This document shows positions 7 through 47,935 of a stretch of DNA of 64,000 bases, piece by piece. The translations under genes and the position numbers were made by a program. The notes under the pieces were generated by a model that was not told where the DNA came from, searched no databases, and saw only the letters and a program-made list of their open reading frames with translations. Numbering within the stretch: the first letter of the stretch is position 1; every line of letters starts with the position of its first letter. Source of the DNA: Acidobacteriota bacterium (lineage in GTDB: Bacteria > Acidobacteriota > UBA6911 > RPQK01 > CBDAPI01); the NCBI GenBank assembly GCA_965205345.1, contig CBDBGQ010000036.1, positions 65,463 through 129,462 of the forward strand, read 5' to 3'.

Positions 7-37
7 GTTCCACGTTTCACGTTCCACGTTCCACGTT
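7..37. repeat. (ACGTTCC)n heptanucleotide tandem repeat, about 4 units, at the window edge
   Basis: gttccacgtttcacgttccacgttccacgtt read directly. Confidence 0.8.
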
Positions 38-441
38 GCTGCTTGCTGATCTGTCACGTCTCCCGGCAGCTTCCGCGCTGCTGCGCAGTCACTGTCGTTC
101 CTGCCTTCCATGAGAAGGCCAATGTATGTCAAGCAACTTGGTGCGTTTAATCGTTTCTTCGATAAGTAACTTCAGCAGCTGTCAGAATGGGGGACTGGAT
201 TCGCGGGCTTCCATTCGCACTCTTGGTGGTCCCTTTTCGCTTCGGGACCGGTGCATGCAGGGGTCCGGCTATCCAGGGGGCTGCTACCTCTGTCGCGACC
301 TCAAGGGTCAGGCAGGAACTCGCAGTCACCCCCGGGACGGGGCGATCTCTCTCACCCCAACTCGTCAAACTGTAGAAGTCTTGTGATCTCCTTTTTGGTT
401 TCGGTGTCGATGTCACTAGGGTAGCTCTTTGCTTAAGGCTC

Positions 442-2243: not shown

Positions 2244-2417
2244 ACATTTAACAAGAATTGCAGCACGACCCGTTCGTGACTGCGTAACCTGGCAGAGTCT
2301 AGCTTCTAGGCTTTGCCGGGGTCTGGCCTTCTCATCCCTATCTCTGACGTTTCCTTGGTTGTCTATGTTTCTCGTGGCTTCGGGGCCGGTGCCATGAGGT
2401 GACTTGTCAGGGCGCGC

Positions 2418-2441
2418 AACGTGGAACGTGGAACGTGGAAG
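2418..2441. repeat. (GGAACGT)n heptamer array, about 3.5 units
   Basis: gtggaacgtggaacgtggaa lies downstream of the ispB-like stop. Confidence 0.75.
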
Positions 2442-2465
2442 GGCACGAGCGCCAGCGAGTGCCCC

Positions 2466-3479: not shown

Positions 3480-3493
3480 TATAGCCCGATGCC

Positions 3494-3526
3494 GGAACGT
3501 GGAACGTGGAATGTGGAACGTGGAAC
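3494..3526. repeat. (GGAACGT)n heptamer array, about 4.5 units, overlapping the PBP1A stop codon
   Basis: ggaacgtggaacgtggaatgtggaacgtggaac read directly. Confidence 0.8.
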
Positions 3527-5868
3527 TATCCAGTGCGTGGCTTCTTTTCCTTCTCTCCTGCCTTGCCTTCCTTCTCCTCTTCCTCTTCCTCGGACGGAGG
3601 TGGCGGAGGGATCTCCTCGACTTGAATCGGGAGGGCGGCGACCTGCTGTGCTGCCTGCTTTTCCGCGAGTGCGATTTCAAGAGGCGTTGGCCGATAGATA
3701 TTCTCAAAGTCCCTGACGGGAACGTCCTCGAGCGCCTTTCCCATGAAGTCGATCCAGATGGGCAGGGCGAGATTGTTGCCGTAAACCTTCTCTCCCAGGG
3801 ATATCTTTTCGTCGTGACCGACCCAGACTGCCGCAGTGATGTCGGGTGTAAAGCCTACGAACCAGACATCCGTAGACTCATTGGTCGTGCCGGTCTTTCC
3901 TGCCACCGGTCTTCCCAGTACGTTGGCCCGGGCCGCGGTGCCACGCAGGACAACCTGGCGAAGCAGGTAGACCATCCTGGCGGCAATGTCCGGGGAGGTA
4001 GCCTGCTCAAAGCGCATTCGATGTTCTTCCAGAGTGACTCCCTCGTAGTCTTCGACCCGAACCAGGTAATGGGGCACGGCTCGAACGCCGCTGTTGGGAA
4101 AGGCGCTGAAGGCTGATGTCAGCTCCAGAAGCGTAGTCTCACCGGATCCCAGAGCAATCGACAGGACCGGCAGGAAGTCGTGGTCAATTCCGAAACGCTT
4201 CACCGCATCGATAATCTTTTGGACGCCCAGCGCCCGGGCCAATCGCACCGTCGGCACGTTGCGAGACTCTGCCAAAGCCTGATACATAGGGATGAGACCC
4301 TTGAAGTTTTCGTCGGAATTCTTGGGTTCATACAGGTTGCCCACTGCGTCCAGGTAACTGACGGGGGCATCCAGGATTCTTTCGTAGGGTGATCTTTCTT
4401 CCTCGAGAGCAACCAGATAAGTGAAGGGCTTGAAGATGGATCCGGGCTGACGCAGAGCCTGTGTAACTCGATTGAACTGGCTCAGCTCGAAGTCGAATCC
4501 GCCCACCATGGCCCGCATGGCGCCGGTCTTGTTATCCAGAACTACCATTCCACCCTGGATCTCGGGAATGCGATCCAGCACGACTTCCACATTCTGCGCT
4601 GCGACGTCAACTTTCTGAATCAGGAAATGAGCCAGATCTCCAGCTCGAAAGACTCTGGTCAGATCCTCTTCTCCGGTCCACTCAACTTCTGCCGGACCAA
4701 TGTCCGCGGAGTATTTTCCAAAGCGGATCCCGGCGCTATTTTCTTCGACTTCCATGATGAGGCCCCGAACCATCCGGCCCGGGTCGAAGACCTGACTCCA
4801 CTCAGGATCCGTGTATTCATCGAGATTCTTGCCCTCATCCACAAGATTTCGGGGTGCTCCTTCCCAGGGTCGATGGGTCTTGTCAAACTCCTTCAGCCCC
4901 TTTCGAAGCGCCTGTCGAGCAATCCTGTGCAGATTGGAATTCAGAGTCGTATAGATCTTGAGCCCACCCTTCCAGATGGTCTCCGTCGAATAGTTCTTCT
5001 CCAACGCCTGACGAACCCATTCGACAAAGTAGGGAGCCACTTCCCGTACATCACTTCCCCTGGACATCAGTGGCTCCTGAAGCGCCTGTTCCATCTTCTC
5101 CTGTGAGAGATAACCTTCATCGACCATGCGCCTGAGAGCGTAGGCTCGACGGGTCAGTGCCGCCTCCGGATTACGAATGGGAGAAAACCTTCCCGGGACC
5201 TGCAGGATTCCGGCCAGCAGAGCACATTCTGCAGTCGAGATCTCATTCAGGGGCTTGTTGAAATAGAAGCGGGCGGCAGCCGCCATCCCGTAAATACCGT
5301 GCCCCATGTAGATCTGATTGACGTAAAGCGTAAAGATCTGCTCCTTGGAGTAGTTCTGCTCGGTTTCGAGCGCGAAGAGCCAGTCCTTGATTTTGCGCTC
5401 CAGTCGCTTTTCCGAACCGGTAAAGCGCAGCTTGCAGAGCTGCATGGTCAGGGTCGAGGCTGCTTTCCAGCGAGTGTAATGGAGGCCTTGATTCCAGAGG
5501 TTGCGGACCATTTCGATCCCCAGCCTCGAGAAGTCGATGCCCGAATGTTCAAAAAAATCCGCGTCTTCAGCGGCCAGAATGGCCTGCTTGAGTTGTTGGG
5601 GAATCTGGCCATATGTCACCAGAATCCGCCGTTCCAGGGCAAACTCACCGATTACCTGACCGTCCGAGGAGTACACATAGGACACTACATTGGGACGAAC
5701 GTCCTGGAGTTCCTCGACCTGAGGTAGGTCAATGGTGTAGCCCAGGACGACTCCAGCCAGTCCCCCAAACAGGACGGTTACCAGTACCAGGAGGCCGTAG
5801 CTCATCCAGAAGAGGGGGCCGCGCACGGTGACAACGGTTCTGAACTTTCTCCAGACTTTCGAGAACAT
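3526..5868 (-). CDS. mrcA: Penicillin-binding protein 1A (bifunctional glycosyltransferase/transpeptidase), 780 aa, with an acidic/Pro-rich C-terminal tail
   Basis: N-terminal TM segment, GT51 motifs (EDADFFEHSGID, RQ..TLTMQL) and transpeptidase motifs (SIFKPF, KTGT) are present. Confidence 0.85.
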   Translation of the reverse strand: MFSKVWRKFRTVVTVRGPLFWMSYGLLVLVTVLFGGLAGVVLGYTIDLPQVEELQDVRPNVVSYVYSSDGQVIGEFALERRILVTYGQIPQQLKQAILAAEDADFFEHSGIDFSRLGIEMVRNLWNQGLHYTRWKAASTLTMQLCKLRFTGSEKRLERKIKDWLFALETEQNYSKEQIFTLYVNQIYMGHGIYGMAAAARFYFNKPLNEISTAECALLAGILQVPGRFSPIRNPEAALTRRAYALRRMVDEGYLSQEKMEQALQEPLMSRGSDVREVAPYFVEWVRQALEKNYSTETIWKGGLKIYTTLNSNLHRIARQALRKGLKEFDKTHRPWEGAPRNLVDEGKNLDEYTDPEWSQVFDPGRMVRGLIMEVEENSAGIRFGKYSADIGPAEVEWTGEEDLTRVFRAGDLAHFLIQKVDVAAQNVEVVLDRIPEIQGGMVVLDNKTGAMRAMVGGFDFELSQFNRVTQALRQPGSIFKPFTYLVALEEERSPYERILDAPVSYLDAVGNLYEPKNSDENFKGLIPMYQALAESRNVPTVRLARALGVQKIIDAVKRFGIDHDFLPVLSIALGSGETTLLELTSAFSAFPNSGVRAVPHYLVRVEDYEGVTLEEHRMRFEQATSPDIAARMVYLLRQVVLRGTAARANVLGRPVAGKTGTTNESTDVWFVGFTPDITAAVWVGHDEKISLGEKVYGNNLALPIWIDFMGKALEDVPVRDFENIYRPTPLEIALAEKQAAQQVAALPIQVEEIPPPPPSEEEEEEKEGKAGEKEKKPRTG

Positions 5869-5917
5869 CTTTCCCTTCGAACCTGCTCGGCAGTACTGGT
5901 TCCAATCTTAACCCATT

Positions 5918-6048
5918 GTTCCACGTTCCACGTTCCACGTTCCACGTCCCGGGGATCCTAAACGATTCCAGGTTCGAAGAAAGCGTGGAACGTGAAACGT
6001 GAAACGTGAAACGTGAAACGCGGAACGTGGAAGGTGGAACGTGGAACG
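5918..6048. repeat. Inverted pair of heptamer arrays, (ACGTTCC)4 then a 35-bp spacer then (GNAACGT)9, between greA and mrcA; a potential long hairpin
   Basis: gttccacgttccacgttccacgttccacg ... gtggaacgtgaaacgtgaaacgtgaaacgtgaaacgcggaacgtggaaggtggaacgtggaacg. Confidence 0.85.
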
Positions 6049-6055
6049 CAGAGCG

Positions 6056-6523
6056 TCAGCGAGTGTCGTGAATGGTGGTGAGCCCGACAATCTCGTAGGT
6101 GACCTTTCCCCGCGGCGTCACAATCTCGACTTCATCGCCTTCCTGCTTCCCCATCAGACTGCGACCGATCGGGGAGCCGGTAGAGATGAGTCCCGCCTTC
6201 ACGTCCGCCTCCTCGCTCGTCACCAGGCGATAGGTTGCCTCTTTTTCTGTCGCCAGGTTGAGAACGACGACTGTGGACCCGTAGGAAACGCGATCCTCCG
6301 GGAGTTTTCTGAGATCGACCATAGAGAGATCCGAGAGCCGCTTTCGAAGCTGGGCCAGCCGGATCTGAACGATTGACACGCGCTCCTTGGCCGTCTGATA
6401 CTCTGCATTCTCTCGCAGGTCTCCCATCTCGATAGCTTTCTTTAAGGCAGCAGGGAGCTCCTCGGTGAGTTCTCGCTCCAGGGCTCTGACCTCTTGTTCC
6501 AGTTTTCTCTTCGCCTCTTTCAA
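6056..6523 (-). CDS. greA: Transcription elongation factor GreA
   Basis: 155 aa with an N-terminal coiled-coil and 'GDLRENAEY' motif, followed by a C-terminal FKBP-like domain. Confidence 0.85.
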   Translation of the reverse strand: MKEAKRKLEQEVRALERELTEELPAALKKAIEMGDLRENAEYQTAKERVSIVQIRLAQLRKRLSDLSMVDLRKLPEDRVSYGSTVVVLNLATEKEATYRLVTSEEADVKAGLISTGSPIGRSLMGKQEGDEVEIVTPRGKVTYEIVGLTTIHDTR

Positions 6524-7005: not shown

Positions 7006-7290
7006 AGCCTTTCGGTTCCGAGTTCCGGGTTCCGAGTTCCGGGTTCCGGTTCCGGGGGGGCGTGTTGCCAAAGGGTGCGCTGGCCCGCGCATTGACTGTA
7101 GGGCACGGTTATTAAGCGTGCCGAACTGGACCCGGTGGCACAGTTCATCCATTTCCGGGCCATTGTTGTCATCTCCATTGGTTCGGCACGCCAGGTTGGC
7201 GTGCCCTACGAATCACACCCGGCGGTCGCGGCCCGAGGCCCTCCACTTCAAGAGCGCGGAACCTGGAACTCAGAACCCGGAACTCGGAAC
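7006..7290. repeat. Inverted arrays of variant heptamers, (TTCCGRG)n at 7006-7053 and (GGAACYC)n at 7258-7290, flanking a 200-bp hairpin-rich spacer
   Basis: The spacer contains a perfect 8-bp stem ggcacgcc/ggcgtgcc, and gtagggcacg...cgtgccctac as long-range inverted repeats. Confidence 0.7.
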
Positions 7291-7381
7291 TCGGAACTCC
7301 GGATGTTGAAGTCCGACCTGCTGCGGGATAAGATCTTTCTCAGGTAGTTCGAGGACTCTCACCAAGAGGGATGAAGACAGC

Positions 7382-14989: not shown

Positions 14990-14992
14990 TCC

Positions 14993-15027
14993 CGGGTTCC
15001 AGGTTCCAGGTTCCACGTTCCACGCTC
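14993..15027. repeat. (GGTTCCA)/(ACGTTCC)-type heptamer array
   Basis: gggttccaggttccaggttccacgttccacg lies between convergent genes. Confidence 0.75.
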
Positions 15028-15075
15028 CGGAGGAAGGGATTCGTAGGGGCCGTAAAGCCACCAGCGCCATCGAAT

Positions 15076-17574
15076 CTACCCCTGCAGTGCCGTCTCACCC
15101 AGGACTCCAGCCAGCATTTCAACAAGGCGATCGGCGTCCCTCTGGTCAAAGACGAGCGGGGGCTTGATCTTGATGACATTGTGCCAGGGACCATCGCTGC
15201 TCAGGAGGATTCCGTATTCTTTCATTCGCTCAACAACGTAGCTCGTCTGCAGTGGGGCCGGCTCCAGCGTACTCCGATCCAGAATCAGCTCGATACCCAG
15301 GAAGAGTCCCTCGCCCCGCACGTCTCCGATGAGAGAAAACTGGTCCAGCAACTGGGCGAGTCGCGATTTGAGATGCTGCCCGACCTGCAGAGATTGTTCC
15401 TGCAGCCCTTCCCTGGAAATGACGTCCAATACTGCCAGGCCAACGGCGCAGGACACAGGGTTCCCCCCGAAAGTGTTGAAGTACTCCATGCCGTTGGCGA
15501 AAGAGGCCGCGATTTGAGGCGTCGTGACCACAGCTGCCAGGGGATATCCGTTTCCGATCGGCTTTCCCATGGTCACAATGTCGGGGACGACATCCTGCAG
15601 CTCGAACGCCCAGAATTCCGACCCGACCCGGCCAAAGCCGGTTTGAGCCTCGTCGACAATGCACACCCCACCACCGCTTCTCACTCTTTGAAAGGCCTCC
15701 CGAAGGTAGCCTGGGGGAGGCACGATCTGTCCCCCGCACCCGAGGATGGATTCACAAATGAACGCCGCCACACCCTCCCCCTGGTTTCGGGCCTGTTCGA
15801 TGGGGCCGGAGAGAAGGCGTGCATATTCGAGCCCGGCCCGGGGTTGGTGCCGCTTGAACGGTCCACGGTAGTCGTCAGGGGTAGGGGCGACATGGACATG
15901 CTTCGGGCAGCCCGAGCCTCCAGGGCCCTCGAACTTGTAAGGACTGATGTCGATGAGCCCCGAGGTGTTTCCGTGGTAGGCACCCTCAAGCACTAGAAAG
16001 TCCTGATGTTCCGTATGAGCACGGGCCAGACGCAGAGCCAGTTCATTGGCCTCGCTCCCGCTGCACACAAAGAAGCAGACCCGAAGCGGTTCGGGAAGAG
16101 TCGAGGTCAGCCGCTCGGCGTATTCGAGTATGGTGTCGTGCAGGTATCTTGTGTTCGTGTTCAGCAACATGTTCTGGTGGTGAGCGGCCTTGACGACTGC
16201 CGGATGACAGTGGCCCACATGGGCCACGTTGTTTACGCAATCGAGGTAGGACCGCCCCTGATGGTCATACAGGAACTGCCCTATACCACGAGTGATCTTC
16301 AGGGGTTTGCTGTAGGCAAGGCTGAGTGAGGGGCCAAGCAGCTCTTTCCGCCTGCGCAGGCTCTCTATCGCTTCCTGATCACCTCCGTGGGCGGTCGCTT
16401 CGGGGACCCCGGAGCTGCCAACGCTGAGGTCCAGTTCGGCAAAGGGCACTCCAGGCAAGTCTTGTTCCGTCCCCGAGGCGACTGACCCGGAGTGCTCCTG
16501 GATCCAACTACTGACTGCCAATTGTTCAGGATGGGGTTCGAGTCCGCAACTGGCCCGCACCGAGTGATGAAAAAGACTCACCTCCGTCTCCCCCAGCTTC
16601 GCCAGCAGCGCCCAGGCGGACCTCTGGCTGATCTGAAGATACTCGTCTTCGGGATGGAGGCGCGCGTTCCTCGATCCAATACCCACGCTGACCAGCAGCC
16701 TCAGCATGATCAGATCATGGAGAAGGCTCATCTCCAGTTCTGAAAGGGGCAGCTCCCGGTGATAGCCACGGACAGCCGCTCTCAGTGCAGCCAGCAGGTC
16801 GGCCTTGTTCATCAGCAGATAGGCGCAGGCAATCGCCAGTTCGGCGATCGTCCAGGAGTAGATCAGGTCTCCGAAGTCGACCAGCCCGAGCAGTTCAGCC
16901 TGGCCCGGAGGGGAGTCGACGCCGGCATTTCGGACCAGAAAGTTGTAGTCATTGGCATCCCCGTGGATCACACTTCTACGCAGATCGTCGGTCTTCGGGC
17001 TCACCCGGCCCCAGCTCTTCTCAAAGAGTAACTCGGCGAGGCGGCGTCTGCCCTTCTCCGTCATGTCGGCAAGACAATCCTGAAACGTCCTTTCCGCGGC
17101 TCTCAGGTCCCACACGAACGTCCGGTGAACGGCCGGATGGTCAAAGTCGAGGAGAGCCCGGTCGATGCTCCCCAGCAACCCGCCGATCGCCTCCAGAAGA
17201 GAGTTCGAGTGAGGGCGACAATCCGCCACAGGAATCCCCTCCACATAGGAAAGGAGCCTCAGCCCGTAAGTAGACGCGGCTCGAGAGATGGGAACGCATT
17301 TCCGCCCTGCTGAGTCGGGGATTACGCGAGGAATACCCAGATGGGGGAGTTCCCGATTCAGATGGTCGAGAGCCTGGTTCTGGGCTTCAATCAGTTCGGT
17401 CCCCGAGGCAGCGTCGCTGATCTTGAGAACGAAGAACCGGCCATCATCCGCGTGCAGCTTGAAGTTGCGATCGGTCTCCGACGGAAGCAGGATGGCTGAG
17501 GCTCTCAGACCATAAAACTCACGAGCGTAACCAACCGCGTCGTCACATGAGATTGGCGGGCGGCTGAAGTTCAT
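15076..17574 (-). CDS. Two-domain fusion: N-terminal aminoglycoside-phosphotransferase-fold kinase plus C-terminal class-III (PLP) aminotransferase/phospho-lyase domain, 832 aa
   Basis: The N-terminal half carries the APH catalytic loop 'VIHGDANDYNFLV' and 'DFGD'. The C-terminal half has the class-III aminotransferase signature 'DEAQTGFGRVG' and the PLP-Lys region 'TMGKPIGNGYPL'. Confidence 0.75.
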   Translation of the reverse strand: MNFSRPPISCDDAVGYAREFYGLRASAILLPSETDRNFKLHADDGRFFVLKISDAASGTELIEAQNQALDHLNRELPHLGIPRVIPDSAGRKCVPISRAASTYGLRLLSYVEGIPVADCRPHSNSLLEAIGGLLGSIDRALLDFDHPAVHRTFVWDLRAAERTFQDCLADMTEKGRRRLAELLFEKSWGRVSPKTDDLRRSVIHGDANDYNFLVRNAGVDSPPGQAELLGLVDFGDLIYSWTIAELAIACAYLLMNKADLLAALRAAVRGYHRELPLSELEMSLLHDLIMLRLLVSVGIGSRNARLHPEDEYLQISQRSAWALLAKLGETEVSLFHHSVRASCGLEPHPEQLAVSSWIQEHSGSVASGTEQDLPGVPFAELDLSVGSSGVPEATAHGGDQEAIESLRRRKELLGPSLSLAYSKPLKITRGIGQFLYDHQGRSYLDCVNNVAHVGHCHPAVVKAAHHQNMLLNTNTRYLHDTILEYAERLTSTLPEPLRVCFFVCSGSEANELALRLARAHTEHQDFLVLEGAYHGNTSGLIDISPYKFEGPGGSGCPKHVHVAPTPDDYRGPFKRHQPRAGLEYARLLSGPIEQARNQGEGVAAFICESILGCGGQIVPPPGYLREAFQRVRSGGGVCIVDEAQTGFGRVGSEFWAFELQDVVPDIVTMGKPIGNGYPLAAVVTTPQIAASFANGMEYFNTFGGNPVSCAVGLAVLDVISREGLQEQSLQVGQHLKSRLAQLLDQFSLIGDVRGEGLFLGIELILDRSTLEPAPLQTSYVVERMKEYGILLSSDGPWHNVIKIKPPLVFDQRDADRLVEMLAGVLGETALQG

Positions 17575-18665: not shown

Positions 18666-19325
18666 CTAATACTGGCGGACGATTTCAACGCCTTTGGGAG
18701 GTTTAAACCTGAATCTCCGGTCGGGAATACTGGCATCCTCCCGGACGTTCTTCAAGATGTAGTCATTTCTTGCCCCGATCGGCTCAATGGCGACGAGCCT
18801 CTCAATTTGGTAAGAAGAGGGGGCAATTTCCAGCAATATCTGGGAAAGGGATGCCTCTTCCTCCCGCGGTGTAAGCCGGATCAGGAAGTTCTCATCCTGG
18901 TGGGGCAGCTCCTCCGTCTCAAAGACAATTTCAAAGTCTCGAGCAACCTGCCCCTCCCCCATCAGAAACAGAAAGAGCGGATCATCTTCTAGTTCGTAAA
19001 TGAATACCTGGCGGTCTCGAGGAACGTAGAAATAGGCCCGTTTGCCGTTCGCGATCAAGTATTTCTCAACCGGGTCTCGGTATTCCCAGTACATTTTCCG
19101 GGGTTTCTTGAGCATGAGAATGCCGTGCTCTTCGTCTCTCACCATGTGAGCTCTGTAGACCTGACTAAAATCTGCCTGCAGTGTGCGGATTCCGCGGTAG
19201 TGCTTCTGACTGAGCTGAACAACCTCGAGGGCAGAGACTTCCGCTCCGACTGCTTCTGCACCCCAGTTCCCCTCCATCAGCGCTACCAGCAGAAGGGCAA
19301 GAACCTGACCACTCCGGTATCTCAT
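18666..19325 (-). CDS. LolA-like outer-membrane lipoprotein carrier / lipoprotein-sorting protein
   Basis: Signal peptide; 219 aa. Composition and length fit the LolA fold (open beta-barrel family). It lies upstream of lspA. Confidence 0.55.
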   Translation of the reverse strand: MRYRSGQVLALLLVALMEGNWGAEAVGAEVSALEVVQLSQKHYRGIRTLQADFSQVYRAHMVRDEEHGILMLKKPRKMYWEYRDPVEKYLIANGKRAYFYVPRDRQVFIYELEDDPLFLFLMGEGQVARDFEIVFETEELPHQDENFLIRLTPREEEASLSQILLEIAPSSYQIERLVAIEPIGARNDYILKNVREDASIPDRRFRFKPPKGVEIVRQY

Positions 19326-19825
19326 TCGCTGTCGGGGCTCCCCTCGGTGACTTCCTGGTTGTGGCTCCCAAACAGACTGAGCGCCAGAATCAGCAGGACT
19401 CCAGTCGTGATCGCTGAGTCAGCCAGGTTGAAAGTCGGCCAGGCAAAGACATCACGCCAGTGCAGTTTAATGAAATCAACCACGTACTGGTGGGTCAGAC
19501 GGTCAACGAAATTGCCGAGAATGCCGCCCAGCACCAGCCCCAGAGCCACGAAGATGACGTGCTCGTCGACAGGCGTAGTCCAGATGTAATAGAGAACCAT
19601 GCACATGGCGACAACAGCCAGCAGACTCAGAAGGGGGCTTTTCCACTGGGACTGGACATCGTTGAACAATCCAAAGGCAATTCCCGTGTTTTCGACGTAG
19701 TGAATGGTGACGAATTCCTCGAAGATCGGGTAATACTGGAGCCACAGGCTGGTCTTCACCCACCACTTGGTCAAGAGGTCGGCTGCGAAGACAATGAATG
19801 CCAGTGAAATGGACAGCTTGCGCAT
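19322..19825 (-). CDS. lspA: Lipoprotein signal peptidase II
   Basis: 'FNLADSAITTGV' hallmark and 4 TM helices are present. The start is taken at MRKLSISLAF; the upstream 77 codons of the ORF run through the repeat array. Confidence 0.85.
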   Translation of the reverse strand: MRKLSISLAFIVFAADLLTKWWVKTSLWLQYYPIFEEFVTIHYVENTGIAFGLFNDVQSQWKSPLLSLLAVVAMCMVLYYIWTTPVDEHVIFVALGLVLGGILGNFVDRLTHQYVVDFIKLHWRDVFAWPTFNLADSAITTGVLLILALSLFGSHNQEVTEGSPDSE

Positions 19826-19874
19826 CTCAGGTGCAGTGCGCTGACATCCCGCAGCGCGGCCCGACATTATATGC

Positions 19875-19980
19875 GTTCCACGTTCCATGTTCCAGGTGGG
19901 TTCTAGGTTCTGGGTTCTGGGTTCTGGAAATTTGGGATCCAAGCGTGGAACGTGGAACTTGGAACGTGGAACCTGGAACG
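19875..19980. repeat. Composite inverted heptamer structure: (ACGTTCC)-type arm, (GGGTTCT)4 spacer, (GGAACNT)-type arm
   Basis: gttccacgttccatgttccagg tgggttctaggttctgggttctgggttctgg ... gtggaacgtggaacttggaacgtggaacctggaacg. Confidence 0.85.
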
Positions 19981-20052
19981 CCGCGAGCGACAGCGAGTGG
20001 TTTCCTAGCAGCCCGTAACCCGAAGGGCACCAGGGCTTTGCGCCCAGTGCGA

Positions 20053-20913
20053 TCAACGGAGGTTGAAGGTGACTTCAATGGTCGCCCAAACATCGACGGA
20101 CTGACCATTGCGCATTCCCGGCCGGAATTTCCAATTCGAGGCGATTTCTCTGATGGCGTTTTCCTCGAGACCGTATCCCAGTCCCCGCACGACGCTCAGA
20201 GTGTCCACCCGGCCGTTCCTTCGCACAATACCCCGCAGCAGCACAACTCCCTGTACCTTGGCCTTGATGGCCTGGTCCGTATAGGAAGGGGTCGTCTTGA
20301 CCAGCAGGACCGGCATGCTGACGTCCCCTCCCACCTGAAAGATGCCGCCACCTCCGCCGGCTCCATCACCAAGGCCCTGCCGCCCGATTCCAAGGCCGCC
20401 CTGGTCTCCCAGTCCCCTGCCTCCACGGGAAGGAGGACCTGGGGGTGCCTCGATTTCGCCGATGCTGAGGTCGATTGTGAGCTCTTCCAGAACCCTCGGA
20501 AGTTCAACAGCAACCCGGCGGATGGGCTCGGGAGCGTTGGGGGTCGGATCGGGAATAGGGACAAATCTGGGCTTGGGCTTGGGAACCACTGGTTTGGGCT
20601 TGGGAGGAGGCGCGGCGGGCCGACCTGCGGCACCCTCGAGTTTGGCTGGGCGGGCCAGTTGCTTGATGACAAATTTGTCCGCTGTCAGGGGCAGCTCGTT
20701 TGCCCCAAAATGGGGCCAAACGATGAGTATGAGGAAGAGATGGAAAAGGAGTGCGAAAATCGCCGCAACCACCAGGGGGCGCCGTCCAGAGACATCCTCG
20801 TTGAAGATGTTGCAGGGGTCGTCAACAAAGGCCAAGCGCTCGCTCTCCACGATTCTGAGAGCAAACAGCCACTCAACGAAATCCCGGAATCCACTCTTCA
20901 GTCCGTGTGCCAT
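20053..20913 (-). CDS. tonB: TonB-family energy transducer (N-terminal TM anchor, Pro-rich spacer, C-terminal TonB domain)
   Basis: 'PAAPPPKPKPVVPKPKPRFVPIPDPTP' spacer is present. The C-terminal 90 aa fit the TonB_C fold. Confidence 0.7.
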   Translation of the reverse strand: MAHGLKSGFRDFVEWLFALRIVESERLAFVDDPCNIFNEDVSGRRPLVVAAIFALLFHLFLILIVWPHFGANELPLTADKFVIKQLARPAKLEGAAGRPAAPPPKPKPVVPKPKPRFVPIPDPTPNAPEPIRRVAVELPRVLEELTIDLSIGEIEAPPGPPSRGGRGLGDQGGLGIGRQGLGDGAGGGGGIFQVGGDVSMPVLLVKTTPSYTDQAIKAKVQGVVLLRGIVRRNGRVDTLSVVRGLGYGLEENAIREIASNWKFRPGMRNGQSVDVWATIEVTFNLR

Positions 20914-26376: not shown

Positions 26377-26473
26377 TGCAGCCCGCCATAAGTTCTGAGC
26401 CACGTTCAGACGCCCCTCCCCGCCGCTGGCGTTGTTGCGCTGACCCTGGCTCAGAACTTATGGCGAGCTGCAC
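26377..26473. mobile_element. MITE-like palindromic element type A (97 bp; about 28-bp terminal inverted repeats GTGCAGCCCGCCATAAGTTCTGAGCC), TA-flanked
   Basis: A perfect long hairpin is read directly. A second copy lies at 56867-57028 with the internal loop inverted plus a 60-bp insert. Confidence 0.75.
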
Positions 26474-26475
26474 TA

Positions 26476-26633
26476 GTGTGCTGTCTGGGAAGTTCGCGGG
26501 GTTAATTCGGGATGGATTTTCGTCGCCAGTGAGGCGCGCGACGCAGGAATGCCGGGAGTCTTTCGAGGAGCGCAACAAAGCTGTCGGCGAAAAGACGCCC
26601 GAAGTAGCGTCGTGAACTTTCCGGATAGTACAC
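26476..26633. mobile_element. MITE-like element type B (158 bp; 24-bp TIR GTGYRCTGTCYGGRAAGTYCRCG), TA-flanked, abutting type A
   Basis: A second copy lies at 47109-47266, about 90% identical over its full length. Confidence 0.75.
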
Positions 26634-26635
26634 TA

Positions 26636-26665
26636 GCAGTCCGTGTTGAAAGTCGCGCGCTAGGG
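26636..26665. repeat. Solo copy of an IS1182-like terminal-IR motif (TAGCAGYCCGTGKTGAAARTCGCGCGC)
   Basis: Similar to the IS IR at 781-801 and to 35988-36018. Confidence 0.5.
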
Positions 26666-27632: not shown

Positions 27633-28274
27633 ATGCCTGATTTTGTTTTGACTGCACTGCTCAGAGAAGAGCGTGGGAAAAATGCCAACCGTCGACTCCG
27701 TGCCACCGGACAGATCCCAGCGATTGTCTACGGAAGGGCCATCGATCCAATCTCTGTGGCCATCGATCCCAGAGAAGTCTTCTCGATATTGCATTCCGAG
27801 TCCGGCCGTAACACCGTGTTCAAGTTGAAAATCAATGAGAAACAGATGGATGTGCTGATCCGCGAACTGCAGGTAGACCCGATTCGAGGCCATCTGCTGC
27901 ACGCGGACTTCCAGACAATCTCAATGGACGAGAAACGAGCTTTCAGCGTGCCCATTGATCCTGTCGGTGAAGCCGAGGGAGTCAAGGGCGGAGGCATCCT
28001 CGATATCGTCGTCCGGGAGATTGAAGTGGAGTGTCTTCCCACGGACGTACCGGACCACATCCCTGTCGACATTTCTGATCTCGAGGTAGGTCAGGCCATC
28101 CGAGTGAGGGATCTGGAAATCACGGCAGAAGGGTTTGAGGTCTTGTCCGACCAGGATCTGGTGCTCTTGACAGTGGTACCGCCCAAGGTCGAGGTCGAGC
28201 CGGAACCCGAGGAAGAGCTGGCTGAAGAGGAGGCTCCGGAACCCGCCGCAGAGACACCCGAGGAGAAAGAGTAG
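27633..28274 (+). CDS. rplY: 50S ribosomal protein L25 / general stress protein Ctc
   Basis: L25 beta-barrel followed by a CTC domain and acidic tail; canonical prs-rplY-pth arrangement. Confidence 0.85.
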   Translation: MPDFVLTALLREERGKNANRRLRATGQIPAIVYGRAIDPISVAIDPREVFSILHSESGRNTVFKLKINEKQMDVLIRELQVDPIRGHLLHADFQTISMDEKRAFSVPIDPVGEAEGVKGGGILDIVVREIEVECLPTDVPDHIPVDISDLEVGQAIRVRDLEITAEGFEVLSDQDLVLLTVVPPKVEVEPEPEEELAEEEAPEPAAETPEEKE

Positions 28275-43128: not shown

Positions 43129-44139
43129 ATGAAAATTCCAACCGTTGGCAGTTGGTTGATTCTACTTGGGGGTCTGCTGCTGTTCGGGTCCGTTCTCCAG
43201 GCTCAGACCATCCGGATCCGGATTGGAACCGTGGCGCCCCAGGACTCCCCGTGGCACGAAACTCTCAAGCAGCTTCGTCAGGAATGGCACAGAATCTCCC
43301 AAGGAGCGGTCCGGGTCCAGATCTATCCCGGGGGCGTGCTGGGCGACGGACCGGAAATGGTCAGACAAGTGCGTGCCGGTCGAATCCAGGCGGTGGCCCT
43401 CTCCTCTGCCGGGTTGGCCCAGATCGACAAGGGGATCTCCTGTCTTCAGATTCCCCTGATGTTTGATTCCTATGAGGAACTCGACTACGTAAGAGCACGC
43501 ATCTCGGATCAACTCGAGAAGCGGCTCGAGCAGCGGGGATTCAAGCTCCTGCACTGGGGAGACGCCGGCTGGGTCCACTCCTTTACAACTGCACCCGCGC
43601 GGACACCCAATGATCTTCGCAAGCTCAAACTCTTTACCCACGCCGGAGATCCGGACATGGAGAGCCTCTACAAGGAGTTTGGCTTCCGAGTTGTCCCGCT
43701 TTCGCTCACCGATTTGATCACCTCTCTTCAGACGGGAATGATCGAAGCCGTGAGCCTGCCCCCGCTCATCACTTTACTCAACGAGTCGTACCGTCTGGCC
43801 CCCAATATGGCGAGCTTCAGATGGACTCCGATGGTGGCAGGAACCGTGATCAGCCTGAAAACCTGGGAGCAGATTCCAGAAGAGCTCCGCCCCAGAATGC
43901 TGGAGGCGGCCACTAAAGTCGGTGACCTTCTGCGAGATGAAATCCGCCAGATGGATGGCGATGCAGTGGCTGAAATGGAAAAACGCGGACTGCAGGTGAT
44001 CGACCTGAATCAAGACGAACTCGACCGCTGGCAGAAGGAGGCTGAGGATGCTTATCCTCGCCTCCGGGGACGCTATGCTCCGGCCGACCTCTTTGACGAA
44101 GTTCGCCGTCTGCGCGATCAATTCCGAGCTCAAAGGTAA
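43129..44139 (+). CDS. TRAP transporter solute-binding protein (DctP-family; TatP-like)
   Basis: Signal peptide and DctP-family fold. Its start overlaps the tatT-like stop (ATGA), as in TPAT operons. Confidence 0.75.
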   Translation: MKIPTVGSWLILLGGLLLFGSVLQAQTIRIRIGTVAPQDSPWHETLKQLRQEWHRISQGAVRVQIYPGGVLGDGPEMVRQVRAGRIQAVALSSAGLAQIDKGISCLQIPLMFDSYEELDYVRARISDQLEKRLEQRGFKLLHWGDAGWVHSFTTAPARTPNDLRKLKLFTHAGDPDMESLYKEFGFRVVPLSLTDLITSLQTGMIEAVSLPPLITLLNESYRLAPNMASFRWTPMVAGTVISLKTWEQIPEELRPRMLEAATKVGDLLRDEIRQMDGDAVAEMEKRGLQVIDLNQDELDRWQKEAEDAYPRLRGRYAPADLFDEVRRLRDQFRAQR

Positions 44140-44674
44140 GAGCTCAAAGGTAAGAGGTTGTGAGACTGTCACGGGCAGCCAACCGACCAGTTCTGGTCTG
44201 GTTCGAAGACTCCCTTTCGCTCCTCATTCTCAGCCTGATGGCGCTTCTGCCAGTCATTGAGATCCTGGGCCGGACCCTGCTGGGAAGGGGAATTCCCGGC
44301 TCCATCGTGCTGGTCCAGCACATGACGCTCTGGATCACGATCCTGGGGGCCGCCCTGGCAGCACGGAGTCACCGCCTGCTCGCTCTTTCCAGTTTGAATT
44401 TTTTCCCGGAGAAGCTGCGCCCTCCAGTGCGCGTGGGCACCTCCATGCTGGCAACAGGCATTACCGCCATCCTCTTCGTTGCCAGCCTGGATTTTGTTCG
44501 AATCGAACGCGAGGCCGGTACCGAGCTGGCCTGGGGCATTCCCGCCTGGCTGGCTCTGACCATTCTGCCGACAGGGTTCAGTGTGATCACGCTGCGGCTG
44601 ATCTGGCATGCCGCGGAGACTCACCGGGGAAGGTTGTTGGCAGCAGCTGGACTGGCCATTCCGGTTATTTTTGG

Positions 44675-45892
44675 GGGATTATATACGAAAGTGGCGAAAT
44701 AGGTGGACGGCTGCTTAAAGGTACGCTAAGCTAGAAGCCGTACAGCGAAACGCCCCGGTTCCAGCCGGGGCGGTGGATAACCCTTAACCGGCTGGTCCAA
44801 TGGGTGCCTAAGCCTCAGACCAGCTACTGGAGTACAGCTATGCCCAAGACTATCCTCAATGTCACCCTCCCGTCAACCCTCGCGCTCAATACGGTGCTCG
44901 CTCAGGACATCAAGGTCCTGGCGAAGGTCGATCAAGCCATGGCCAAGCCAAATGCCATCGTCGACCAGTCGTTCAGAAAGGTGAACTCCTGGACGTAGCG
45001 GTCCAGGTGCTTGGGGCTGAGCTTGTGGAAGGTGCCCTTGTGCGCTCGCTTGAGCATCGACCACAGCGATTCAATCCCGTTGGTGTGAACCTCGCCCTTG
45101 ACGTACTCGGAGAGCGAGTGCTTGACCGTGGCGTGATTGAACCGTAGCGACTCGTAGGCGGTCGCATCGTCGGTGTAGACCGTCGCACCAGGGGCCGCGT
45201 GTTCCTCGACGAATCCCTGCAACGTTTGCTGGTCCGTCGCATGAACGACCTTCGCGGCCACGCGCTTGGTTCGGCGGTCCTTCGCTCCGACCGCCGCCGT
45301 CTTGCCGACGGGTCCACGGCCCGTGTTGGCCAGGGCCTTCCGTCGGGTGTTGCTCATGTTCCGGCGACGACCGCCGAAGTATGTTTCGTCGATTTCAACG
45401 GGACCGGCGAACCGCACCCCATCCTGCGACAAGGCCGCCCGGAGCCGCTGCGCGAGGAACCACGCGGATTTCTGCGTGATACCCAAGTCGCGGTGGAGCT
45501 TCATGCTCGACACGCTCTTGAGGCTAGTCATGATCTGGAAGATGGCGATGATCCAGTCCTGATAGCCGATCTTCGAGCCTTCCATGATCGTGCCGGTCTT
45601 GACGCTGAACTTCTTGCCGCATGCCTTCTCACGGCAGCGGAACGGCATCGTCTTGTGCTTGCACCCCGTCTGCACGTTGACGGAGCCGCAGTCGTGGCAG
45701 CATACGCCGTCAGGCCACCGCTGCTGGATGAACCACCGCTCCGCCGTCGCGTTGTCGGGGAACATCCGCATGATCTGTTTGAGGGAAATGCCTTTGCGGA
45801 ACGCTTTGCCTGGGGCCTTCTTTCTCATGCCCCTAGTTTACAGGAAAGTGGCTGCGTGTCAAGAGTAAACGCCACTTTCGTATATAATCCCC
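44675..45892 (-). mobile_element. IS1595-family insertion sequence (about 1.2 kb), 22-bp perfect terminal IRs GGGGATTATATACGAAAGTGGCG, TSD TATTTTTG
   Basis: IRs at 44675-44697 and 45870-45892. Direct repeat at 44666-44673 and 45893-45900. Confidence 0.85.
44932..45828 (-). CDS. IS1595-family (ISXO2-like) transposase with N-terminal zinc-ribbon
   Basis: 'CCHDCGS...C..C..KFSV' Zn-ribbon, then DDE domain 'VEIDETYFGG'. Confidence 0.8.
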   Translation of the reverse strand: MRKKAPGKAFRKGISLKQIMRMFPDNATAERWFIQQRWPDGVCCHDCGSVNVQTGCKHKTMPFRCREKACGKKFSVKTGTIMEGSKIGYQDWIIAIFQIMTSLKSVSSMKLHRDLGITQKSAWFLAQRLRAALSQDGVRFAGPVEIDETYFGGRRRNMSNTRRKALANTGRGPVGKTAAVGAKDRRTKRVAAKVVHATDQQTLQGFVEEHAAPGATVYTDDATAYESLRFNHATVKHSLSEYVKGEVHTNGIESLWSMLKRAHKGTFHKLSPKHLDRYVQEFTFLNDWSTMAFGLAMA

Positions 45893-47108: not shown

Positions 47109-47266
47109 GTGTACTGTCCGGGAAGTCCACGGTGTTAATTCGGGATGGATTTTCGTCGTCAGTGAGGCGCACGACGCAGGAATGCCTGGAGTATTTCGAG
47201 GTAGCGCAACAAAGCTGTCGGCGAAAAGACGCCCGAAGTAGCGGCGTGAACTTTCCGGACAGTGCA
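47109..47266. mobile_element. MITE-like element type B, copy 2, TA-flanked, starting on the dctM stop codon
   Basis: About 90% identical to 26476-26633. Confidence 0.75.
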
Positions 47267-47275
47267 CTAGGGTTG

Positions 47276-47431: not shown

Positions 47432-47935
47432 ATGACCCGCGTCGTGAGTTTTCAGGAATTTTCCGTTTTTGGAGATGCGGCCCGACTCTGGGTCTATCCT
47501 TTCCGGGATCCCTTGACCGGGCCGCCCCGCAGCCTGCTGGGGCAGACGCTGAATGGTTTTCTACCCACCTGGGCTTCCCATGGGGCACGGGTTGAGGGCC
47601 GCTTTCTTATTCACGAGGACCGGTTCGTCCTGCTGGTCGGCGACTCCCCGGCCGGGATCTCGGGTTGTTCCATTGACAGCAGCGTTGAGAATTTCAAGAT
47701 GCTTCGGGATCGGCATGGCCTGGACGGTCTGGATCGCTCGCTGGTCTTCTTTCGGGACACAGCAGGCCGCATCCAGGCAGAGCATTTCTTCGACTTCCAG
47801 AAGCTGGTATCTTCCGAGCGCATAGTACCGGACACGCCCGTCTTTGACACTACGATCACCACTCTGGGGGAACTTCGAGAGGGTGGCCTGGAGAAGCCCT
47901 TCCAGGATTCGTGGCACGCCGCACGGTTTTCTTGA
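47432..47935 (+). CDS. Hypothetical protein, 167 aa
   Basis: ORF with plausible composition and no recognisable motifs. It ends exactly at a heptamer array. Confidence 0.35.
   Translation: MTRVVSFQEFSVFGDAARLWVYPFRDPLTGPPRSLLGQTLNGFLPTWASHGARVEGRFLIHEDRFVLLVGDSPAGISGCSIDSSVENFKMLRDRHGLDGLDRSLVFFRDTAGRIQAEHFFDFQKLVSSERIVPDTPVFDTTITTLGELREGGLEKPFQDSWHAARFS

Follow-up and report, generated by a model that had tools for sequence, protein, structure and literature searches.

To our knowledge, no function or dispersal mechanism has been established for bacterial heptamer repeats. The cyanobacterial STRR (short tandemly repeated repetitive) heptamers were reportedly described by Mazel et al. in 1990, and REP and REPIN elements are said to be treated in the 2011 work of Bertels and Rainey. 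Over-representation of heptamers among the long simple repeats of many bacteria has been recognized since 2007 (Mrazek, as cited in PMC4679880 and PMC4692102). The Xanthomonas GGGAATC and Nostoc PCC 7120 GGGGA(C/T)T families (Rehm et al. 2015, PMC4692102) consist of tandem 7-nt units with a mode of about 4, are biased to noncoding DNA, and lie between aligned ORFs and rarely between divergent ones. On a preferred strand they occur less than 50 bp from a stop codon, on the opposite strand ahead of an ORF; they form inverted pairs, and close relatives differ in length and sequence at the same sites. In the cyanobacterial STRR (Calothrix/Anabaena), as cited in PMC4692102, several related heptamers per genome are likewise arranged in tandem in intergenic DNA. 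The TAACTGA direct repeats of marine Beggiatoaceae (MacGregor 2015, PMC4679880) are intergenic, with 2 to 6 copies whose orientation to the genes is constant; their occurrence across phyla is patchy, and a single-strand-binding protein (Csp, S1, or CsrA) was proposed for them. REP, REPIN, and BIME elements (Di Nocera 2013, PMC3733652) are extragenic, often follow stop codons, and are lineage specific, with tens to hundreds of dispersed copies; one inverted dimer arrangement dominates and forms long hairpins, and singletons are interpreted as remnants. In Geobacter metallireducens (PMC2700814), GGACCGG x4 and MTYCTGA x5 occur at dozens of sites and are annotated as putative regulatory elements.

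The locus described here lies in a 64,000-nucleotide stretch of an acidobacterial contig (the window) and belongs to a heptamer family, mainly GTTCCAC, for which a literature search with exact 14-mers found no paper. This family adds a further case to a kind of bacterial repeat that is known but unexplained, and the present data give no evidence of a protein-binding array. On balance, the locus is probably one copy of a lineage-specific, slippage-prone intergenic heptamer family that forms the arms of dispersed hairpin elements.

The locus upstream of lspA and its relatives

The locus at 19873-19980 runs from GCGTTCCACGTTCCATGTTCCAGG through TGGGTTCTAGGTTCTGGGTTCTGGGTTCTGG and 16 unique bases to CGTGGAACGTGGAACTTGGAACGTGGAACCTGGAACG. 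Inverted arms, (CGTTCCA)3 and (CGTGGAA)5, flank a (GGGTTCT)4 tract, in agreement with the arm-spacer-arm order given in the preliminary description. The features, in gene sense, are as follows.

20053-20913, minus strand: upstream gene, encoding a TonB C-terminal domain protein (Pfam PF03544, E = 6.5e-17)
19985-19999, minus strand: box CACTCGCTGTCGCTC, which follows the TonB-like stop at a distance of 54 nt and immediately precedes the first arm
19942-19980, minus strand: first arm, with units GTTCCAG, GTTCCAC, GTTCCAA, GTTCCAC, and GTTCCAC; (CGTGGAA)5 on the plus strand
19928-19943, unstranded: unique 16-nt loop segment AAATTTGGGATCCAAG, including GGATCC
19897-19927, plus strand: hypervariable loop array (GGGTTCT)4, with one AGGTTCT unit; AGAACCC in gene sense
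19873-19896, plus strand: second arm (CGTTCCA)3, inverted relative to 19942-19980
19866-19871, minus strand: TATAAT hexamer resembling a -10 box, adjoining the element on its 3' side; the conserved lspA start (19825) follows about 40 nt downstream
19322-19825, minus strand: downstream gene lspA, signal peptidase II (Pfam PF01252, E = 2e-38)

The public gene call places the lspA start at 19867. The box and the stretch of three arrays make up an imperfect palindrome of about 134 nt, situated between the TonB-like stop and the -10-like box before lspA; on its opposite strand, the box reads GAGCGACAGCGAG, a mini-hairpin of the GCG-NNA-GC type. The arms pair as three blocks of 6 to 8 bp, separated by one mismatch at unit position 7, and the composite RNA folds with z = -3.6 on the gene-sense strand and z = -6.9 on the plus strand. 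The loop array is out of register with both arms. It has 4 copies in the window, 5 in strains L176 and L178, and 12 in L175. The first arm shows no change in the 4 other strains.

The two sister species L183 and L184 lack the composite, the difference being a clean indel that falls between GGGCTGC and ATATAAT, and ATATAATG with the next ~45 nt is conserved in both. The TATAAT hexamer is the downstream limit of the inserted composite. We also considered a phase-variation switch for lspA and rejected it: with the variable tract upstream of the -35 position, promoter spacing is unaffected, and the neighbors are housekeeping genes.

The window holds 22 tandem arrays with a period of exactly 7 (TRF and lag analysis), and all of those listed in the preliminary description are present. 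The relatives of the target are given below, with length changes in other genomes.

7-40, plus strand: (GTTCCAC)4 at the window edge, followed by a 45-nt module within 52-106
2413-2443, minus strand: single array lying 23 nt beyond a stop codon, with box 2447-2461
3493-3527, minus strand: single array overlapping the TAG stop of the PBP1A gene
5916-6049, minus strand: second composite with the same build as the target, and box 6051-6065 containing the gene's TGA stop; (GTTCCAC/GTTTCAC)9, a 30-nt loop with GGATCC, then (GTGGAAC)4
7014-7303, unstranded: pair (GTTCCGR)5 and (YCGGAAC)6, separated by a 220-nt spacer between divergent genes
14990-15028, plus strand: single array 6 nt after the stop of a GDSL-like gene, between convergent genes; +7 nt in L175
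17575-17608, minus strand: single array filling the 33-nt spacer from fabH to an aminotransferase gene, the first base of its first unit being the G of the fabH TAG stop; -7 nt in L178
25397-25433, plus strand: single array 53 nt after the stop of a TPR gene; -7 nt in L177, -21 nt in L178, GTTACTC to GTTCCAC in L176, array absent in L183
32164-32191, plus strand: single array 7 nt after the L9 gene stop
47935-48170, unstranded: pair between convergent genes, each array abutting its own gene's stop codon; 180-nt spacer conserved in OZ240092.1 (L083); -14 nt in L182
49175-49209, minus strand: (GTTCTRG)4.7 array abutting a BshC-like start codon, with GTTC on the antisense strand; -7 nt in L181
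56850-57048, plus strand: (GGGTTCT)2 twice, at 56850-56864 and 57028-57048, flanking a MITE-like insertion
57114-57158, minus strand: imperfect (GTTCAAA/GTTGAAA/GTTCAAG) array 23 nt upstream of an acyl-CoA dehydrogenase start codon; no length change among strains
62389-62478, minus strand: third pair, downstream of maf; arm at 62389 +14 nt in strain L171

The RNA of the second composite folds at -71.1 kcal/mol (z = -6.65), and two further loops, that of the 5916/5982 pair and that of L047, also contain GGATCC(C). The two (GGGTTCT)2 stretches probably belonged to a single array that was interrupted by a MITE-like inverted-repeat insertion of 169 bp at 56863-57031, whose 37-nt arms are 95% complementary, with CTAG at both junctions; direct GGTTCTGGGTTCT copies lie 179 nt apart in this region.

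Period, core, and polarity

With the same array criterion at all periods (at least 19/21 matches at lag p), the number of arrays in the window was 14 for p = 7 and 4 for its harmonic, p = 14; the other values of p between 4 and 13 gave zero. Not one array of any period arose in 30 dinucleotide-preserving shuffles, and period 7 thus lies far above chance expectation. GTTC is present in all 22 array consensuses (GTTC+NNN), and array-level differences are confined to positions 5 to 7; the drift at this level is limited to the other three positions, as proposed. By our own calculation, the chance that three non-GTTCCAC families share one tetramer with the main unit, if unrelated, is ~1e-3. The proposed core holds for consensuses but is broken at the unit level by GTTTCAC (8 times) and GTTG (5 times), and by CAACTTT, which alternates with GAACTTT at 57114-57144. 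Likewise, phase is fixed inside an array but not across the target, where GTTC/GAAC starts fall at 2, 6, and 5 modulo 7 in the three arrays. A better description of the core is GTT, then C, with information content declining from position 1 to 7; because phasing was set on GTT, the values for positions 1 to 3 are circular at the unit level, although not at the level of array consensuses.

The units are also linked by single-base steps, all present in the window: GTTCCAC > GTTCCAG > GTTCCGG > GTTCTGG. All heptamer arrays of the window belong to one GTTC+NNN superfamily, and this excludes independent microsatellites, the case that would have contradicted the preliminary description. The unit-count mode is 4 (52/117 arrays, in a sample ascertained on at least 3 exact units).

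Noncoding DNA, which makes up 11% of the window, contains 21 of the 22 arrays, and array-bearing spacers are found between co-directional (10/29), convergent (2/7), and divergent (1/6) genes. When orientation was scored by distance to stop codons, GTTC was in the sense of the upstream gene in 12/12 stop-proximal arrays of the window and, for arrays within 40 nt of a stop codon in acidobacterial loci and the window together, on the sense versus the other strand in 20 versus 6. Bacteroidota loci carry the GTTCCAC-type unit in the opposite sense (6 versus 0). The order GTTCC...GGAAC is found in 18/18 inverted pairs, 5 of them in the window, 4 in acidobacterial MAGs, and 9 in a Syntrophorhabdaceae MAG. 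Such pairs fold strongly (z = -3.6 to -6.65), and regions with single arrays show no folding beyond that of shuffled sequence (z = -1.1 to +1.5).

Does this polarity point to RNA? Gene-sense RNA folds no better than antisense in 3/3 co-directional pairs, the antisense strand folding as well or better, so that wobble asymmetry lends no support to a role or to selection at the RNA level. No U-tract follows the hairpins or arrays in the window, so that none has the GC-rich hairpin directly followed by a U-tract that defines an intrinsic terminator. In a scan of 14-26 kb for terminator and promoter consensus sequences, nothing was placed at arrays; consensus terminators were if anything depleted (6 observed versus 11.5 expected), none at an array. 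Rfam at the gathering threshold gave no match in the window, and ARAGORN found no tRNA or tmRNA there. Syntrophorhabdaceae copies have A-runs before the pair and T-runs after it. A Rho rut site, C-rich and G-poor after a stop, was also rejected: the orthologous array of sister species is G-rich or U-rich.

The strand bias is what one would expect if the arrays were single-strand platforms, in the post-stop transcript or in displaced DNA, on which a protein with a footprint of about 7 nt reads 5'-GUU(C). Single arrays are unstructured, conservation declines from the 5' GTT to a variable 3' part, and one cold-shock protein per heptamer of direct repeats was found by Sachs 2012 and Morgan 2007, as summarized in PMC4679880. 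Cold-shock-domain proteins, other OB-fold proteins, and HUH-type enzymes would be candidate classes. This reading is unlikely in our view, given that units of an orthologous array span C-rich to G-rich, that copy number is not constant, that the Bacteroidota sense is opposite, and that paired arrays would be double-stranded in RNA.

Slippage and dispersal

Among the 15 arrays compared in 5 genomes (99.4 to 99.96% identical), 7 are polymorphic in steps of 7. The changes among near-identical strains measure 7, 14, 21, and 56 nt, and arrays account for 1.45% of aligned bases yet 14 of 50 raw indel calls. The strain assemblies are long-read at 5-15x coverage, and some of these indels may be errors, although errors do not usually take the form of exact multiples of 7 within arrays. 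Since copies change by whole units between near-identical strains, this expansion and contraction is slipped-strand mispairing. Interrupted tracts are more stable than purer ones. In one strain, a degenerate edge unit, GCTCCAC, has been duplicated, which provides a route by which a variant unit becomes amplified. The assertion that slippage could not generate the observed pattern is contradicted by these length changes, by the GCTCCAC duplication, and by the single-base steps between units. Gain or loss of an entire array was not seen among the five strains, in which a true MITE and several IS elements did move.

Sister species extend this view. The array at the fabH stop is kept in both L183 and L184, with the same period, anchoring, and GTT, while its units differ: GTTCCAC versus GTTCAGG versus GTTTCGG/GTTTTGA. 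Degenerate orthologous remnants of the GDSL-stop array (14990-15028) persist in both.

Other copies share more than the repeat. The box occurs in three exact copies in the window (2447-2461, 6051-6065, and 19985-19999), each directly 5' of (GTTCCAC)n, and box plus array are also found in L047, L050, L070, and L079, giving 7 copies in all in several genomes. The 62389 composite has a homolog in L003 at a nonorthologous site, downstream of atpC, with a spacer ~85% identical. The 45-nt module with its array is present in 3 copies: the module of 52-106 also precedes the array at 48146, and the module at 47964-48130 matches both L083 and window 52-106. Otherwise, spacers of paired arrays are mostly unrelated to each other. 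No target-site duplication was recognizable at the ends of E1, 62389/L003, or the Syntrophorhabdaceae copies, nor were clear element termini found, and no transposase or RAYT gene can be linked to the arrays from these data, no RAYT gene lying in the window or the strain loci.

These data are consistent with a scheme in which a founder unit, GTTCCAC, gave rise to GTTCCAG, GTTCCGR, GTTCTRG, GTTCAAR, and GTTTCAC. The arrays would be the arms of dispersed, nonautonomous hairpin elements, REPIN- or MITE-like; single arrays may be remnants or half-elements that evolve in place through slippage and point mutation. The GTTC core might then be that part of the founder unit not yet replaced at the array level, and paired copies would probably serve as transcript 3'-end hairpins or cruciform-prone DNA.

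Could slippage suffice by itself? We find it still less likely than a single-strand platform that the arrays are purely local microsatellites, each produced in place by polymerase slippage with an intrinsic 7-nt preference, tolerated solely in noncoding DNA beside stop codons, and having neither dispersal nor function. Slippage is demonstrated, and in many bacteria no class of long simple repeats is commoner than the heptamers, for which a link to the polymerase has been proposed (Mrazek 2007, as cited in PMC4679880 and PMC4692102). In viral contigs, GTTCCAC has 3 matches against 2, 6, and 3 for control heptamers of the same composition; because the controls are equally frequent, there is no evidence that GTTCCAC is special everywhere. 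As a background rate, 717 kb from distant relatives contains only 27 heptamer arrays, of unrelated units, and a metagenome scan with the aminotransferase protein returned relatives of 42 to 67% identity only, with no GTTC-family arrays. However, independent origin predicts unrelated units, and all 22 arrays are one superfamily; the non-repeat flanking modules common to nonorthologous sites, the invariant order of the pairs, and the strong strand bias argue in the same direction.

The preliminary description took the conserved core and period for tandem duplex-DNA sites, kept by selection, for a protein that reads GAAC every 7 bp. Its observation of the repeats was correct, as was their unity; its binding-array reading, which we judge decidedly improbable, has no support here, and its exclusion of slippage does not hold. 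The constancy of GTTC in consensuses, the retention of GTT and period in the orthologous fabH array while other positions change, and the inward polarity of the pairs, as expected of sites at a transposon's two ends, would all suit such sites. Yet near-identical strains have 4, 5, or 12 copies at the target and 7/15 arrays vary, sister species have the same promoter-like box but no composite beside it, neighboring arrays are out of register, orientation tracks the upstream gene's strand or the pair, and GTTTCAC and GTTG break the core. Seven base pairs is two thirds of a helical turn, and successive duplex sites would therefore face different sides of the helix. Iteron-like arrays hold constant both the number of their sites and the spacing from a promoter or origin, which is not so at the target. 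A -35 element for an ECF sigma factor (GGAAC) was also rejected: in-array spacing to CGT is 13 or 20 nt, not 16 to 17, and GGAAC is antisense to the flanking genes.

Least probable is a plus-strand G-quadruplex of (GGGTTCT)n, as proposed for Xanthomonas GGGAATC and Nostoc GGGGAYT (PMC4692102). With G3 and 4 further nt in each unit, the 12-copy L175 allele fits G3N4G3N4G3N4G3 and alone has four or more short-loop G3 runs, but one AGG unit leaves the window allele with only three, and quadruplexes cannot explain the family because GTTCCAC/GTGGAAC, which has no G-runs, shares the 4-unit mode, stop proximity, and pairing.

Comparison with known repeat systems

Our preferred reading, a dispersed hairpin family with slippage-prone arms, places the arrays between several described systems. 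They have the properties of heptamer LSSR/STRR: at least 3 head-to-tail units in noncoding DNA, whole-unit change, a mode of ~4, proximity to stops on one favored strand, and rarity between divergent genes. The GTTCCAC family differs from the Rehm heptamers (PMC4692102) in unit and phylum, and the quadruplex rationale proposed for the latter is inapplicable because the main unit has no G-runs. Beyond those heptamers, it has a fixed pair order, conserved flanking modules, and nonorthologous copies. The unit sequences of the cyanobacterial STRR are unrelated to ours. TAACTGA (PMC4679880) lies just upstream of start codons, whereas the GTTCCAC family is mostly found just after stop codons; only one inverted set was reported for TAACTGA, in contrast to the frequent inverted pairs here, and related heptamers are rare there, while several variant units coexist in the window genome. 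The Geobacter metallireducens elements (PMC2700814) also occur inside genes, unlike the mostly intergenic arrays of the window.

The resemblance to REPINs is partial. A dominant inverted dimer forming a long hairpin is seen in 18/18 pairs, but a REP unit is a short palindrome with a GTAG or CGTC tag, and the heptamer array is not palindromic (single-array z = -1.1 to +1.5). No such tag accompanies the window copies; GACG...CGTC flanks several Syntrophorhabdaceae copies. As in MITEs, homologous internal sequence occurs at unrelated loci, with presence/absence variation (62389/L003, L083, and L183/L184). Inverted arms are present, with no duplication recognizable at the copy ends examined.

It is an improbable idea that heptamer families in general are read on ssDNA or RNA by a protein with a 7-nt footprint that fixes their polarity and disperses them; an OB-fold/cold-shock-type or HUH-type factor acting on hairpin elements could be an example. 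If true, one mechanism would account for STRR, GGGAATC, TAACTGA, and GTT(C)NNN, and would explain why the period is always 7, why the 5' core is kept as the other positions drift, and why pairs face inward.

This lineage offers a clean test system, with one superfamily and at least five near-identical genomes that show unit-by-unit length changes, and the sister species give unit turnover at an orthologous stop-anchored site. Pair polarity is absolute and common to an unrelated phylum. The inability of the main unit to form G-quadruplexes removes the sole mechanistic proposal for the best-studied family. If the polarity and the core are due to a protein that recognizes them, pull-down could recover it; if they are not, the GTTCCAC family is a case in which slippage and mutation create related repeats that mimic selection.

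Heptamer units and the target element

TRF and a lag-7 scan identify 22 arrays of period 7 in the 64-kb window. When one criterion is applied to every period, the window contains 14 arrays at period 7 and 4 at its harmonic 14, with none at the other periods from 4 to 13, and 30 dinucleotide-preserving shuffles of it contain none at any period. The period-7 GTTC/GAAC arrays of the preliminary description are thus real (14 versus 0). Its conserved core stands for the consensuses, since all 22 consist of GTTC plus three bases that vary (CAC in 13 arrays, otherwise CAG, CAT, CGG/CGA, TGG/TAG or AAA). It does not stand for single units, in which the core is broken by GTTTCAC (8 occurrences), GTTG (5) and, at 57114, CAAC alternating with GAAC; conservation falls off along the unit (GTT > C > C > A > C), with no sharp four-base core. 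Single-base steps, all present in the window, connect all unit types. Similarly, the proposed fixed phase holds inside each array but not between the three arrays of the target element, which start at positions 2, 6 and 5 modulo 7: phase is meaningful inside one array only. There is no support for a protein reading duplex DNA in a 7-bp register, to which the pattern had been ascribed; one with a 7-nt footprint on single strands is possible.

Reading the sequence of the target at 19873-19980 confirms the proposed arm, (GGGTTCT)4 tract and inverted arm, the outer two arrays being mutually inverted copies:

Within 19873-19980, plus strand: first array, three units, GCGTTCCACGTTCCATGTTCCAGG
Within 19873-19980, plus strand: second array, four units, TGGGTTCTAGGTTCTGGGTTCTGGGTTCTGG
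Within 19873-19980, plus strand: unique segment between arrays, AAATTTGGGATCCAAG
Within 19873-19980, plus strand: last array, five units, CGTGGAACGTGGAACTTGGAACGTGGAACCTGGAACG
20053-20913, minus strand: TonB C-terminal-domain gene (Pfam; public gene calls)
Conserved start at 19825, minus strand: lspA (Pfam; public gene calls)

The element lies within the 227 nt that separate the TonB stop codon from the lspA start, and lspA is followed on the same strand by lolA and fabH (Pfam; public gene calls). The predicted RNA fold is an interrupted stem of three 6-8-bp blocks, with -44.9 kcal/mol (z = -3.6) for the gene-sense RNA and -68.5 kcal/mol (z = -6.9) for plus-strand RNA, which folds more strongly because GGGUUCU also pairs with GGAACNU via G-U pairs. 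A 4-nt CTAG duplication (CTAGCTAG) occurs in two strains at 20007-20010, the exact upstream junction of the composite formed by the element and its adjoining box.

Placement, polarity and pairing

About 89% of the window is coding, and 21 of the 22 arrays lie in the other 11%; the sole exception is a two-unit array from which a gene takes its last codons and its TAG. By spacer type, arrays are present in 10 of 29 co-directional, 2 of 7 convergent and 1 of 6 divergent spacers. Twelve start within 73 nt of a stop codon, most within 10 nt, and two of the twelve overlap it; all 12 read GTTC in the sense of the gene that stops there. With other acidobacterial loci included, sense outnumbers antisense by 20 to 6, several of the 6 depending on spurious ORFs. 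Any second, inverted array lies distal to the first, and therefore the order is GTTCC...GGAAC in all 18 examinable pairs (5 in the window, 4 in other acidobacterial MAGs and 9 in one Syntrophorhabdaceae MAG) and never the reverse. In predicted folds, single arrays are unstructured (z from -1.1 to +1.5) and paired arrays form strong hairpins (z from -3.6 to -6.65). Since these predictions give gene-sense RNA no folding advantage over antisense RNA, and canonical U-tract terminators are absent from the window arrays, a terminator role can be proposed only tentatively.

Length change, gain and loss, and probable dispersal

Strain contigs were taken from five ENA long-read assemblies by exact-protein look-up, with four contigs per look-up, and are 99.4-99.96% identical to the window. 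Seven of 15 arrays differ in length across these genomes, always by multiples of 7:

Array 14990: +7 in another strain
Array 17575: -7 in another strain
Array 25397: -7 and -21 in other strains
Array 47935: -14 in another strain
Array 49175: -7 in another strain
Array 62389: +14 in another strain
Loop array of the target, 19897: 4, 5, 5 and 12 copies

The interrupted arms of the target do not change among strains. Arrays make up 1.45% of aligned bases versus 14 of 50 raw indel calls. One strain gained its extra unit by duplication of a degenerate edge unit, GCTCCAC, and another has replaced GTTACTC with GTTCCAC; the two cases illustrate how variants of the unit spread or become homogeneous. 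Together with the single-base links between units, this length variation contradicts the earlier view that slippage could not produce the pattern. Outside the arrays, the window differs by 7 nt at 11072 from all four other strains, and strains differ by +9 and +21 nt near 28231-28236 and by -14 nt at 44126-44156, a 14-nt tandem duplication (GAGCTCAAAGGTAA).

No whole array is gained or lost among the five strains, although several IS elements and one true MITE of 165 bp do move. IS-mediated rearrangement is extensive in L173, L177 and L179-L182 relative to window 35-47 kb and 21-23 kb, in genomes otherwise >99% identical (DDE_Tnp_1_4, IS1595-like and DUF772/IS5-like types), and one IS-linked insertion duplicates the array region 62360-62410.

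In two sister species the syntenic loci (L183 and L184; LspA homologues 82% and 84% identical) both lack the target composite. About 134 nt (box, arm, loop, arm) separate GGGCTGC from ATATAATG in the window and the two directly adjoin in L184; the composite is an indel as a whole. A -10-like TATAAT and the next 45 nt are kept in all three. The array that begins at the fabH stop is found in 3/3 genomes; anchoring and period are constant, but the unit is GTTCCAC in the window, GTTCAGG in L183 and GTTTCGG/GTTTTGA in L184. Downstream of a GDSL-like gene, L183 and L184 keep no more than degenerate remnants of the array, and the array after a TPR gene is missing in L183, L184 not keeping the region. 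Arrays are therefore long-lived at some sites, where their units turn over in concert, and gained or lost elsewhere. In the same lineages, an APH-aminotransferase fusion has 832 aa in the window lineage (15076-17574) versus ~1020 aa in the sister species (L183:12230-15292, L184:12252-15311), where it has an added Peptidase_M23 domain.

Several modules are shared between array loci. A 15-nt box, CACTCGCTGNCGCTC, stands 5' of an array at 2447-2461, 6051-6065 and 19985-19999 (about 5e-4 exact matches expected by chance) and at four loci of other MAGs. Its general type, stem-TCGCT(N1-3)CGCTC-stem, has 59 matches in the 1.49 Mb of window and loci versus ~8.5 expected, and seven copies lie directly 5' of GTTCCAC arrays; the opposite strand reads GCG(N)NAGC, a known and very stable mini-hairpin of GCGAAGC type. 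For the array-spacer-array composite at 62389-62466, a homologue whose spacer is ~85% identical lies downstream of atpC, in a MAG locus without any gene common to the window. A 45-nt module, AGGCAGGAACGACAGTGACTGCGCAGCAGCGCGGAAGCTGCCGG, adjoins arrays at 48040-48170, at 1-140 (inverted) and in OZ240092.1. These shared modules and the absolute pair order place the arrays closer to REPIN/BIME or MITE families than to isolated microsatellites; no target-site duplication or transposase link was found for them, nor a tag at the window copies.

Other repeats accompany the arrays. The ~170-nt intergenic sequence 47964-48130, 79% identical to L083:1831-2000 (OZ240092.1) between different flanking genes, holds the near-identical 45-nt module (inverted copy at 52-106) with a GCAGC...GCTGC hairpin; it has no Rfam match and may represent a small RNA or a further mobile element. 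The ~165-bp MITE is bounded by CTAG at each junction and has terminal inverted repeats of ~25 nt (GTGTACTGTCCGGGAAGTTC... / ...GAACTTTCCGGACAGTGCAC), with copies at 26474-26637, 47107-47270 and, in another acidobacterial MAG, L042:6318-6574; it is probably active, since its presence is polymorphic in one strain (L174, at window ~62358). A second MITE-like element, 56863-57031, likewise has CTAG at each junction; its inverted arms are 37 nt long and 95% complementary. Its insertion seems to have split a (GGGTTCT)n array: GGTTCTGGGTTCT flanks the element on both sides, 179 nt apart, and its terminal sequence GGCTCAGAACTTATGGCGAGCTGCACTAG also adjoins the ~165-bp MITE at ~26447-26475. The minus-strand ORF 44932-45828 (third-position GC 0.84 versus ~0.65 in its neighbours) may be of foreign origin.

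Exact (GTTCCAC)3 occurs at at least 90 loci in species-representative genomes versus ~0.3 expected by chance; among the matches listed, the sources with multiple matches are a few acidobacterial MAGs, one Syntrophorhabdaceae MAG, Gemmatimonadota and Prevotellaceae. The Syntrophorhabdaceae genome shares the GTTC families (GTTCCAC, GTTCAAG/GTTCAAA, GTTCTAC) and also has the unrelated families CCTATCG and GCCGTAA. Its loci (L007-L090, CAXXUO01) carry pairs of ~4+4 units with 28-bp stems, 58-132-nt loops, an A-run upstream and a T-run downstream, as in aaaagacg(GTTCCAC)4 ... (GTGGAAC)4 ccgtcttttttt, an architecture repeated in CCTATCG and GCCGTAA; by analogy, these pairs look like bidirectional intrinsic terminators. 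In Bacteroidota (Prevotellaceae and others; L002, L005, L017, L048, L074) the sense after stop codons is reversed (GTGGAAC 6, GTTCCAC 0), and these loci also hold several unrelated families, e.g., AACACTT and AAACCAT. Other phyla have unrelated units, and relatives with 42-67% protein identity have only 27 heptamer arrays in 717 kb, all unrelated. In viral contigs GTTCCAC is no commoner than control heptamers of identical composition (3 matches versus 2, 6 and 3). Period 7 is a general feature; unit and polarity are specific to the lineage.

Origin of the arrays and known heptamer repeats

The observation behind the preliminary description is confirmed and its interpretation partly supported. 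Considered jointly, slippage, non-coding restriction, polarity, hairpin pairing, persistence with unit turnover, the indel of the composite and the shared flanking modules incline us, with some reserve, to regard the arrays as the arms of hairpin elements that are dispersed and non-autonomous. Arrays without a partner would be remnants that evolve in place, paired copies would probably work as 3'-end hairpins or cruciform-prone DNA, and the GTTC core would be inherited from a founder unit.

According to Mrazek 2007 (cited in PMC4679880 and PMC4692102), heptamers are the class of long simple repeat that is over-represented in many bacteria. The GGGAATC repeats of Xanthomonas and GGGGAYT repeats of Nostoc described by Rehm et al. 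(PMC4692102) have nearly the same anatomy as the GTTCCAC family: four units are preferred, between aligned ORFs, within 50 bp of a stop codon, on one strand and with inverted pairs, and length varies between close relatives at the same sites; Rehm et al. found no function. TAACTGA repeats have a fixed orientation, and MacGregor proposed cold-shock or S1-type binders for them (PMC4679880). Geobacter metallireducens has heptamer elements of four and five units (PMC2700814), and in REP elements one dimer arrangement dominates, singletons being remnants (PMC3733652). Unlike GGGAATC of Xanthomonas, the main unit GTTCCAC lacks G-runs; quadruplex formation, the rationale put forward for the Xanthomonas family, therefore cannot explain such repeats in general. 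The GTTCCAC/GTTC heptamers are a new addition to an already known kind of intergenic heptamer repeat.
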